Shown piece by piece: positions 26,461 through 46,659 of a DNA stretch of 64,000 bases. Location of the stretch: the NCBI RefSeq assembly GCF_044324875.1, contig NZ_CP172185.1; one strand, given 5' to 3'. The position numbers were made by a program, and so were the translations under genes. The notes under the pieces were generated by a model. The model saw nothing but the letters and a program-made list of their open reading frames with translations, was not told the origin of the DNA and did no database searches. Origin of the DNA: Escherichia coli (GTDB lineage: Bacteria > Pseudomonadota > Gammaproteobacteria > Enterobacterales > Enterobacteriaceae). Numbering within the stretch: the stretch's first letter is position 1; each line of letters starts with the position of its first letter.

Positions 26461-27129
26461 TCCTTCCTCAATCTTGAGTAACCCCGTCGTTGAAGGGTTA
26501 CTCAATTCATCCTGATTATACGCACTGTCATGGTGCAACTGCTTCAAATTAAAACTCTGGTCTGACTTCAAATAATTATCATATTATTTATTTGCGTAAC
26601 GGGATATCAGAAAAAGATATTTAGCCCATTAATTTATTAGGATGTTTACATCGGATTTGTGATTAAGCGTGGTATTATTTATTAGCGAAACGTTTCTCTC
26701 TTGATTTTTTTGCGCATTTATCAATTTTTCTTATTTTAAATTTACAATACCTTTGGCGATTGACTTCTCTTTGGGGTGATCTATAGCCGTTAACTGACTG
26801 TTTTATGAGAAAAAGTGATATAACTTTTTATTCATTGCATAGCAGAAAATGTGATATTGCACGCACTATGTAATAACTTCTCCCACTGGCCTGGAACAAC
26901 TGAACTTATTGAACTATGTTAGAAAATACGTCAGTTTAAGTATCTGCCTGAACTGGCAAGGTTAAGCACAATGATATATCGGCGCGTATTCCGTTGCATA
27001 AGTGTGCAAAAAAAGTGGAAGACGTATCGAGATTTGTGCGTCTGATCGAGACATGTTTAAAAATGGCTTGCCATAATTAACGTTGTATGTGATAACAGAT
27101 TTCGGGTTAAACGAGGTACAGTTCTGTTT

Positions 27130-43396: not shown

Positions 43397-43453
43397 TTTG
43401 TTACGGAGTATGGTATGATGCGCGCCTTTTTATTGATCTAAGCACGAAGACCC

Positions 43454-44149
43454 ATGCGAATTCTGGCTATCGATACCGCGACAGAGGCCTGCTCTGTCGC
43501 CCTGTGGAACGACGGTACTGTCAACGCTCATTTTGAGCTTTGCCCTCGTGAACATACTCAACGAATCTTACCGATGGTGCAGGATATCCTGACCACCAGC
43601 GGAACTTCCCTGACTGATATTAACGCTCTGGCTTACGGGCGCGGCCCTGGTAGCTTTACCGGCGTGCGCATTGGTATTGGTATTGCGCAGGGGCTGGCGC
43701 TTGGCGCGGATCTGCCGATGATTGGCGTTTCCACGCTCATGACCATGGCGCAAGGGGCGTGGCGCAAAAACGGCGTAACCCGCGTGCTGGCAGCCATTGA
43801 CGCGCGAATGGGGGAAGTTTACTGGGCCGAATATCAGCGCGATGAAAACGGCGTCTGGCACGGCGAAGAAACAGAAGCCGTACTGAAACCAGAACTCGTT
43901 CATGAACGGTTGCAACAGCTTTCCGGCGAATGGGTAACCGTGGGTACGGGCTGGCAAGCCTGGCCGGATCTCGGTAAAGAGAGCGGGTTGGCCCTGCGCG
44001 ATGGCGATGTGTTACTGCCTGCCGCCGAAGATATGCTGCCGATTGCCTGCCAGATGTTTGCCGAGGGAAAAACCGTCGCGGTAGAACATGCCGAACCGGT
44101 TTATTTACGTAACAACGTCGCGTGGAAGAAACTTCCTGGCAAAGAATGA
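43454..44149 (+). CDS. tsaB: tRNA t6A37 threonylcarbamoyladenosine biosynthesis protein TsaB
   Basis: 231 aa beginning [18 protein letters not shown]. Confidence 0.9.
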
Positions 44150-44187
44150 ATCTTAAGAGTATGCCCTGAGAAAAAAGGAGTCGCATC

Positions 44188-44769
44188 ATGGCGGTTCAAA
44201 AGAATGTTATCAAAGGCATACTGGCAGGTACGTTTGCGCTAATGCTGAGCGGTTGTGTTACTGTGCCGGACGCCATTAAAGGCAGCAGTCCCACGCCGCA
44301 ACAAGATTTAGTTCGGGTGATGAGTGCGCCGCAGCTGTACGTTGGTCAGGAGGCTCGCTTTGGTGGCAAAGTGGTTGCGGTACAAAACCAGCAAGGGAAA
44401 ACCCGCCTGGAAATTGCCACCGTACCACTGGACAGCGGAGCCAGACCGACGCTGGGAGAACCTTCTCGCGGTCGCATTTATGCTGATGTGAACGGTTTTC
44501 TGGACCCGGTAGATTTCCGTGGACAACTGGTTACGGTAGTCGGGCCAATCACCGGTGCGATTGACGGCAAAATCGGCAACACGCCCTATAAATTTATGGT
44601 GATGCAGGTAACGGGTTACAAACGTTGGCATTTAACCCAGCAGGTGATTATGCCGCCTCAGCCGATTGATCCATGGTTTTATGGCGGTCGTGGCTGGCCC
44701 TATGGCTACGGCGGATGGGGCTGGTATAATCCCGGCCCCGCGAGAGTACAAACAGTTGTAACTGAATAA
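44188..44769 (+). CDS. yeaY: Slp-family outer membrane lipoprotein YeaY
   Basis: 193 aa; lipobox LSGC. Confidence 0.8.
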
Positions 44770-44798
44770 TTGCTTGTTTTTAAAGAAAAAGAAACAGC

Positions 44799-44815
44799 GG
44801 CTGGTCCGCTGTTTC
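44799..44815. promoter_or_regulatory. Candidate distal FadR operator of fadD (overlaps the yeaY terminator hairpin)
   Basis: ggCTGGTCCGCTGTTtc resembles the FadR consensus AnCTGGTCnGACCnGTT; also sits within hairpin aaacagcgg-ctggtc-cgctgttt. Confidence 0.4.
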
Positions 44816-44884
44816 TGCATTCTTACGGTAAAGATAAAAATAAATAGTGACGCGCTTCGCAACCTTTTCGTTGGGTAATTATCA

Positions 44885-44901
44885 AGCTGGTATGATGAGT
44901 T
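44885..44901. promoter_or_regulatory. Candidate proximal FadR operator of fadD
   Basis: AGCTGGTATGATGAGTT; about 86 bp from the distal site, matching the spacing I recall for the two fadD FadR sites. Confidence 0.45.
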
Positions 44902-44973
44902 AATATTATGTTAACGGCATGTATATCATTTGGGGTTGCGATGACGACGAACACGCATTTTAGAGGTGAAGAA

Positions 44974-46659
44974 TTGAAGAAGGTTTGGCTTAACCGTTAT
45001 CCCGCGGACGTTCCGACGGAGATCAACCCTGACCGTTATCAATCTCTGGTAGATATGTTTGAGCAGTCGGTCGCGCGCTACGCCGATCAGCCTGCGTTTG
45101 TGAATATGGGGGAGGTGATGACCTTCCGCAAGCTGGAAGAACGCAGTCGCGCGTTTGCCGCTTATTTGCAACAAGGGTTGGGGCTGAAGAAAGGCGATCG
45201 CGTTGCGTTGATGATGCCTAATTTATTGCAATATCCGGTGGCGCTGTTTGGCATTTTGCGTGCCGGGATGATTGTCGTAAACGTTAACCCGTTGTATACC
45301 CCGCGTGAACTTGAGCATCAGCTTAACGATAGCGGCGCATCGGCGATTGTTATCGTGTCTAACTTTGCCCACACTCTGGAAAAAGTGGTTGATAAAACCG
45401 CCGTTCAGCACGTAATTCTGACCCGTATGGGCGATCAGCTATCTACGGCAAAAGGCACGGTAGTCAATTTCGTTGTTAAATACATCAAGCGTCTGGTGCC
45501 GAAATACCATCTGCCAGATGCCATTTCATTTCGTAGCGCCCTGCACAACGGCTACCGGATGCAGTACGTCAAACCCGAACTGGTGCCGGAAGATTTAGCT
45601 TTCCTGCAATACACCGGCGGCACCACAGGTGTGGCGAAAGGCGCGATGCTGACTCACCGCAATATGCTGGCGAACCTGGAACAGGTTAACGCGACCTATG
45701 GTCCGCTGTTGCATCCGGGCAAAGAGCTGGTGGTGACGGCGCTGCCGCTGTATCACATTTTTGCACTGACCATTAACTGCCTGCTGTTTATCGAACTGGG
45801 TGGGCAGAACCTGCTTATCACTAACCCGCGCGATATTCCAGGGTTGGTAAAAGAGTTAGCGAAATATCCGTTTACCGCTATCACTGGCGTTAACACCTTG
45901 TTCAATGCGTTGCTGAACAATAAAGAGTTCCAGCAGCTGGATTTCTCCAGTCTGCATCTTTCCGCAGGCGGAGGGATGCCTGTTCAGCAAGTGGTGGCAG
46001 AACGTTGGGTGAAACTGACTGGACAGTATCTGCTGGAAGGTTATGGCCTGACCGAGTGTGCGCCGCTGGTCAGCGTTAACCCGTATGATATTGATTATCA
46101 TAGTGGTAGCATCGGTTTGCCGGTGCCGTCGACGGAAGCCAAACTGGTGGATGACGACGACAACGAAGTACCACCGGGTCAACCGGGTGAGCTTTGTGTC
46201 AAAGGACCGCAGGTGATGCTGGGTTACTGGCAGCGTCCGGATGCTACCGATGAGATCATCAAAAATGGCTGGTTACACACCGGCGACATCGCGGTGATGG
46301 ATGAAGAAGGATTCCTGCGCATTGTCGATCGTAAAAAAGACATGATTCTGGTTTCCGGTTTTAACGTCTATCCCAACGAGATTGAAGATGTCGTCATGCA
46401 GCATCCTGGAGTACAGGAAGTCGCGGCTGTTGGCGTACCTTCCGGCTCCAGTGGTGAAGCGGTGAAAATCTTCGTAGTGAAAAAAGATCCATCGCTTACC
46501 GAAGAGTCACTGGTGACTTTTTGCCGCCGTCAGCTCACGGGCTACAAAGTACCGAAGCTGGTGGAGTTTCGTGATGAGTTACCGAAATCTAACGTCGGAA
46601 AAATTTTGCGACGAGAATTACGTGACGAAGCGCGCGGCAAAGTGGACAATAAAGCCTGA
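44974..46659 (+). CDS. fadD: Long-chain fatty acyl-CoA synthetase
   Basis: 561 aa from a TTG start ([25 protein letters not shown]); AMP-binding motif [11 protein letters not shown]. Confidence 0.92.

Follow-up and report, generated by a model that had tools for sequence, protein, structure and literature searches.

The conserved element in the spacer between yeaY and fadD of Escherichia coli is probably the terminator of yeaY, and the distal FadR operator described at the same place is probably a by-product of the palindrome of this terminator, with little or no conserved regulatory role. Since the loop bases of the terminator hairpin vary among relatives while its stem covaries, the pattern argues for selection on the hairpin rather than on the FadR site. 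The selection that can be seen in these sequences seems to be for the RNA hairpin and not for recognition by FadR, and from the same conservation pattern we infer that the distal site is without function.

In the proposed explanation, the yeaY terminator hairpin would be the element kept by evolution, with a U-tract that has eroded in E. coli. The constant 3' arm CCGCTG resembles the right half of fadD-type operators, and a freely drifting loop that reads CTGGT by chance, as in K-12, would then give a FadR half-site with weak binding in vitro. The proximal operator is the working operator; there, RNA polymerase is kept out by bound FadR until FadR is released by long-chain acyl-CoA. This offers a simple explanation for an acknowledged loose end, the FadR site at -100, which is a probable accident of a palindrome and not a second operator.

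The yeaY-fadD spacer and its published FadR sites

The window is the whole stretch of DNA that was analysed, 64,000 nt of the E. coli contig NZ_CP172185.1 (NCBI RefSeq assembly GCF_044324875.1). Both the list of open reading frames and the RefSeq annotation give the gene order yoaA, tsaB, yeaY, fadD and rnd on its plus strand, and the features discussed below are collected in Table 1. The yeaY-fadD spacer (44770-44973, 204 nt) is the sequence of K-12 MG1655 with no differences, and K-12 coordinates are obtained as 1,934,720 minus the window coordinate. An Rfam search over 44000-45300 returned no RNA family at E<=1. The comparative set was drawn from a species-representative genome collection by a FadD search and comprises 80 Enterobacterales loci, with no Salmonella or Klebsiella and no Escherichia species other than E. 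coli among them; wherever the flank is long enough, yeaY is found upstream of fadD. Alignment A1 holds the yeaY-fadD spacers of 53 Enterobacteriaceae.

Table 1. Features in and around the yeaY-fadD spacer, in window coordinates
Feature	Position	Strand	Basis
SigmaE-type promoter-like element GAAACTT-N16-TCTTA, 3' end of tsaB (putative)	44128-44155	+	Motif match
yeaY CDS, Slp-family lipoprotein, 193 aa	44188-44769	+	ORF list, RefSeq annotation of identical DNA
yeaY intrinsic-terminator hairpin with degenerate U-tract, GCATTCTTACGG	44790-44828	+	Inverted repeat, folding, covariation
Distal FadR site OD2 ("site 2" of Feng and Cronan, 2012), GGCTGGTCCGCTGTTTC	44799-44815		Inside published probe fadD-FadR-site2, which maps to 44791-44823
			
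CRP class I site AGTGAcgcgctTCGCA	44846-44861		Inside published fadD CRP probe, which maps to 44828-44875; almost invariant in A1
-35-like hexamer TTATCA of the fadD promoter (putative)	44879-44884	+	Spacing to the -10-like element and published start site
Proximal FadR operator OD1 ("site 1" of Feng and Cronan, 2012), AGCTGGTATGATGAGTT	44885-44901		Published probe fadD-FadR-site1, which maps to 44875-44910
-10-like TAATAT (44901-44906) and transcription start A44914	44901-44914	+	Start 60 nt before TTG; start site ascribed to Black et al. (1992)
fadD CDS, long-chain-fatty-acid--CoA ligase, 561 aa, TTG start	44974-46659	+	RefSeq annotation, ORF list

Two FadR-like sites upstream of fadD had been proposed in the earlier note, and its coordinates are exact: the two 17-mers lie 86 bp apart from start to start and leave a gap of 69 bp between them. 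Both operators are already published. The FadR gel-shift probes listed for fadD (Feng and Cronan, 2012; PMC3460868, Table 2) cover the proximal and the distal site, none maps elsewhere, and the CRP probe of the same table covers the CRP site. In that work, fadD carries two FadR sites with a separation of 68 bp, the affinity of FadR for the distal probe is more than 10-fold below that for the proximal one in vitro, and binding to both probes is abolished upon addition of oleoyl-CoA (PMC3460868). The authors state that their sites agree with the DNase I footprints of Black et al. (1992), and they place an ArcA site that abuts FadR site 2, the distal one. Repression of fadD by FadR was just 2-3-fold overall (PMC3460868), with a reporter that spans 44374-44965 and so includes both FadR sites. 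A later paper by the same author swaps the site numbering, keeps the sequences and calls the proximal probe relatively high-affinity, and a 2022 review finds the -100 position surprising for a repressor and notes the lack of in vivo experiments on the distal site (PMC9329746). The words yeaY, terminator and hairpin are absent from the accessible papers on the fadD FadR operators, and the overlap of the distal site with the yeaY terminator, together with its evolutionary pattern, appears to be undiscussed in them.

Transcription of fadD reportedly starts 60 bp before the translation start, with OD1 at -13 to -29 and OD2 at -99 to -115, figures that are ascribed to Black and colleagues in 1992. 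With the TTG codon at 44974 they lead to A44914, which we take to be +1. Put on window coordinates, these numbers reproduce both 17-mers exactly. At -29 to -13 relative to A44914, the proximal operator fills the spacer between the -35-like and -10-like elements, the classical arrangement for repression by steric hindrance; the distal site, at -115 to -99, lies outside the -35/-10/+1 region that defines such a position. The hexamer TTATCA was missed by the consensus promoter scan, with matches at 8 of 12 positions only. A hit of the scan, TTAATA-18-TATCAT (44900-44929), was rejected as the fadD promoter because it clashes with the published start site. The CRP site is centred at about -60.5 from that start.

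Further sequence features were noted around this promoter. At 44899-44915, GTTAATATTATGTTAAC holds two GTTAA repeats 11 bp apart and resembles an ArcA box lying over the -10 element and the start site; it is nearly invariant in the 53 Enterobacteriaceae, and its position contrasts with that of the ArcA site beside the distal FadR site (Feng and Cronan, 2012). A perfect 8-nt inverted repeat, TCGCAACC (44857-44864) and GGTTGCGA (44934-44941), connects the right half of the CRP site with a strongly conserved block in the 5' UTR of fadD. This block, GGGGTTGyGATGACGAC, is near-invariant in the 53 genera.

The FadR matrix used for scanning was derived from sites of other genes, five in all and thus few (fadBA, two of fadL, fabA and fabB), with sequences taken from the later paper of the same author. 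It ranks the proximal operator second among the 63,984 positions of the window, with a score of 13.1, while the distal site comes 91st with the asymmetric and 253rd with the symmetrised matrix. FadR likeness is borne out by the scan for the proximal site, and the match of the distal one is inseparable from chance by sequence alone. Given these ranks, the evidence for FadR binding at the distal site is the published experiments and not the sequence match. Compared with the 17-bp palindromic consensus aaCTGGTCnGACC(T/A)Gtt, as quoted in PMC9329746, the left half of the distal site, CTGGTC, is perfect, and the right half has 2 matches of 6 at positions 10-15. With a matrix that includes fadD-type sites, the distal site reaches a shuffle p of about 0.02 within its own 112-nt region. 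Its core CTGGTcCGCTG agrees at 10 of 11 positions with CTGGTaCGCTG, the form of the proximal operator that is conserved in enterobacteria, and a matrix derived from other genes may therefore score it too low.

The top match to the FadR matrix in the 64-kb window is CTCTGGTCTGACTTCAA at 26555-26571, with a score of 15.5, above the fadD proximal operator. It follows directly on the yebO terminator hairpin and precedes yobF-cspC; to our knowledge, this site is no known FadR target.

Nearly all of the 80 Enterobacterales loci have the proximal operator about 89 nt upstream of the fadD start, mostly as AACTGGTACGCTGAGTT, and its CTGGTA core is invariant in the 53 Enterobacteriaceae (53/53). The E. 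coli operator AGCTGGTATGATGAGTT differs at three positions from AACTGGTACGCTGAGTT, which is common to 47 of the 53 (compared at loci L003-L054), and its central base is polymorphic within E. coli, being T or A. No recognisable FadR site was found upstream of fadD at loci L075, L080 (Edwardsiella) and L055, where the best matrix scores are 1.7, -1.7 and 2.9; these loci retain the yeaY-fadD synteny despite the missing site.

Structure and conservation of the yeaY hairpin

The hairpin begins 21 nt past the yeaY stop codon (TAA, 44767-44769). It is a perfect 11-bp inverted repeat of AGAAACAGCGG (44790-44800) and CCGCTGTTTCT (44806-44816) around the loop CTGGT (44801-44805), and with 6 GC pairs among the 11 its stem is that of a terminator hairpin. 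The RNA folds with -17.2 kcal/mol on the plus strand (z = -4.2) and with -17.5 kcal/mol on the minus strand. The distal FadR site had been described as the stem of this terminator, which is accurate in part: the site lies within the hairpin, but the 17-mer is made up of the complete loop, with 2 nt of the 5' arm on one side and 10 of the 11 nt of the 3' arm on the other.

Across the 53 spacers of alignment A1, 98.5% of the cells of the hairpin are paired. Compensatory changes have occurred in 4 of the 11 pairs, with 28 such cells, from A-U to G-C at two positions and from G-C to C-G or U-A at another. The covariation score, the percentage of cells paired and the number of cells changed on both sides were reached by none of 500 shuffles, and the observed count of pairs or of pair types changed on both sides by 3-4 of 500. 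Sliding the partner columns lowers the pairing to about 39-69%. Compensatory stem changes are also seen within the Escherichia/Citrobacter clade.

In Serratia, Yersinia, Pectobacterium, Erwinia and others, an unrelated hairpin with a T-run occupies the same position. A canonical terminator, taken as at least 5 T in the 8 nt after the hairpin with trimmed stems allowed, is present at the hairpin position in 63 of the 80 Enterobacterales loci. Because the position is conserved while the sequence turns over, the hairpin is regarded as the yeaY terminator, an assignment that is well supported by position, covariation and the replacement by unrelated terminators.

Some E. coli strains carry changes next to the hairpin. 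In 356 E. coli genomes AAAAAG is changed to AATGCAG (44785-44795), and the upstream flank is now complementary to the downstream TGCATTC, so that the perfect stem grows from 11 to 17 bp and the upstream A-run is lost (E. coli B-2207, locus L083, at about 165-175). This variant resembles a hairpin-templated (quasipalindrome) mutation. In E. coli APEC E12049 (locus L084), an IS200C element with annotated tnpA lies directly 5' of the hairpin, left of position 151 (about 44785 in the window), and this insertion between yeaY and fadD leaves the hairpin and both FadR sites intact.

Termination of yeaY transcripts in E. coli

Most of the U-tract of the yeaY terminator is gone in Escherichia and in Citrobacter amalonaticus. 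The plus-strand U-tract of E. coli has 4 T in 8 nt, under the scan threshold of 5, compared with 6-7 T of 8 in most relatives; that of Enterobacter reads GTTTTTTT. The erosion is found in the Escherichia/Citrobacter clade (UUUCUGCAUUCUU, 4 T of 8), and in E. coli the first bases UUUCU remain. With 4 T of 8 on the plus strand, the terminator scan therefore called the hairpin on the minus strand only, with the tail TTTTCTTTAA that derives from the upstream A-run. A link between the eroded U-tract and the CTGGT loop was also considered and dropped; it is seen in two lineages only (E. coli and C. amalonaticus), against CTCGT in the C. youngae group, and these are too few.

The minus-strand call and the short plus-strand tail are what would be seen if the hairpin were no working yeaY terminator in E. 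coli and were instead a decayed relic through which transcripts of yeaY pass into fadD-rnd, an element acting mainly on the opposite strand or an RNA-stability element of the yeaY 3' end. Expression data agree with such a reading. yeaY is a listed member of the sigmaE regulon, and sigmaE overexpression raised yeaY 2.8x, fadD 2.2x and rnd 1.5x, the three being listed as one putative operon (PMC2731931); yeaY and fadD were co-induced by sigmaE in a second data set as well. The sole sigmaE-like promoter found, the only match in 43400-44980 to GGAACTT (at most 2 mismatches)-N15-17-TCNNA, lies upstream of yeaY, in the last codons of tsaB and about 35 nt before the yeaY start, and is likely the source of transcripts that reach the hairpin. 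In the curated Term-seq supplements of Adams et al. (2021) there is no yeaY entry and no coordinate 18898xx/18899xx that would mark a yeaY 3' end, and the TERMITe paper holds no yeaY 3' end, with one irrelevant match only.

Several points stand against this reading. Compensatory changes, some of them within the Escherichia/Citrobacter clade, have kept the stem intact, and the initial U-tract bases are still in place. Binding of the RpoE holoenzyme within the yeaY-fadD spacer was reported by genomic SELEX, so the co-induction need not mean read-through, and the absence from a thresholded Term-seq list may reflect low expression of yeaY. A minus-strand terminator as the main function was rejected, as neither a minus-strand promoter-like site nor a convergent gene was found and the A-run is lost in the 356 E. 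coli genomes. A hairpin that no longer serves yeaY as a terminator is quite unlikely in our judgement. As for the terminator itself, the co-induction and the lone upstream sigmaE-like promoter suggest that it leaks in E. coli, and the hairpin probably terminates transcription there, though probably incompletely.

The distal FadR site and its comparison with known systems

The TGGT core of the distal site is the hairpin loop, and its fate can be followed among the relatives. CTGGT forms the loop in 9 of the 53 Enterobacteriaceae spacers and is lost in the other 44, where CTCAG, CTCGT, CTTGT, CCGGT, CTAGC, CATGT, CCTGG and more are found. All seven verified FadR sites have G at loop position 3, which is essentially random among the 53 genera (G13/C16/T16/A8). 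The loop columns are 30-72% conserved, so that conservation of the site, found for the proximal operator in 53/53, is not found here. The variable columns of the 17-mer are loop bases and stem columns, and most of these stem columns covary with their partners. Upstream of the proximal site, a further FadR-like site reaches a shuffle p<0.05 in 14 of the 80 loci, nine of them with a CTGGT loop.

The site also varies within the species. Of 5,425 complete E. coli genomes, 4,007 (74%) carry the exact K-12 81-mer, and in 1017 (19%) the change T44802C turns the loop CTGGT into CCGGT with the stem intact, which alters a T that is invariant among verified FadR sites. E. coli K-15KW01 (locus L082) is one such strain, and these strains are ready-made material for tests of the distal site.

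According to the earlier note, one sequence may serve as both terminator and operator. The overlap is physical, but conservation lends the double use no support, given the rarity of CTGGT (9/53), the covarying stem and the CCGGT variant in E. coli; dual use is real in the physical sense and hypothetical in the functional one. In E. coli the same DNA would then be the yeaY terminator in RNA and a functional auxiliary FadR operator for fadD, which might act by a higher local FadR concentration, by cooperation with the proximal site 86 bp away or by interference with CRP, the RNA polymerase alpha C-terminal domain or ArcA. The binding in vitro, its loss with oleoyl-CoA and the stated match to the DNase I footprint count against a mere by-product, as does the loop CTGGT itself, which is more frequent than any other and reappears in several genera. 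The distal gel-shift probe can moreover fold into a hairpin, which could lower its apparent affinity in gel shifts. Also in keeping with an auxiliary operator are the distance of 86 bp to the proximal site, which is the same in all loci with a CTGGT loop, the adjoining ArcA site (Feng and Cronan, 2012), the 10/11 likeness to the conserved fadD-type operator core and the exact K-12 sequence in most E. coli genomes. On the other side, the half-site is gone in 44 of 53 genera while the proximal operator is invariant, a T that is otherwise invariant is polymorphic in 19% of E. coli, and binding of the distal site is more than 10-fold weaker. Repression remains 2-3-fold even with both sites in the reporter, and the 2022 review notes the lack of an in vivo test of the distal site (PMC9329746). 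Furthermore, we know of no DNA looping by FadR, a dimer with one DNA-binding surface, and this likewise counts against an auxiliary operator. We therefore hold a functional dual use to be unlikely, and consider the distal operator most likely a weak and lineage-sporadic by-product of the terminator.

For Escherichia and Citrobacter amalonaticus, a more specific role is conceivable. There, FadR at the distal site could form an acyl-CoA-sensitive roadblock to transcripts that run from the yeaY sigmaE promoter toward fadD-rnd, an idea that we consider highly improbable. If true, the -100 site would gain a job apart from the fadD promoter, and envelope stress would be linked to fatty-acid activation. 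Transcription-factor roadblocks inside transcription units are known for LacI, CodY and CcpA. In these systems a DNA-bound repressor faces RNA polymerase coming from an upstream promoter, which is also the geometry of the distal site for yeaY transcripts; however, their sites are of high affinity, whereas the fadD distal site is weak and unconserved and its roadblock is hypothetical. An auxiliary role of the distal site in E. coli, the roadblock included, may exist but is disfavoured, since the site is weak, has been lost in most genera and is polymorphic within the species.

A distal operator that arose as a by-product of the terminator leaves the established regulation of fadD through the proximal operator, CRP and ArcA unchanged. 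It also calls for caution, in that terminator hairpins can yield footprintable matches to palindromic transcription-factor motifs, which then reach regulon databases.

Compared with canonical Rho-independent bidirectional terminators, the yeaY hairpin shares the GC-rich stem, the short loop, the 5' A-run, the 3' T-containing run and the position just after a stop codon. It differs in that the 3' U-tract of E. coli yeaY is eroded on the strand on which it is needed, while it is canonical in most relatives. OD1 and OD2 of E. coli fadD (Black, DiRusso et al., 1992; Feng and Cronan, 2012) are the same DNA as that of the window and the sites show no difference; the gap, the weaker distal site and the intervening CRP class I site of the literature all agree with the window. 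The fadL promoter is the only other promoter of the fad regulon with two FadR sites, both of which are bound in vitro. The two fadL sites, however, lie 8 bp from each other, are equal in affinity and both overlap the core promoter, whereas the distal site of fadD lies about 100 bp upstream, is weak and sits within the terminator of another gene.
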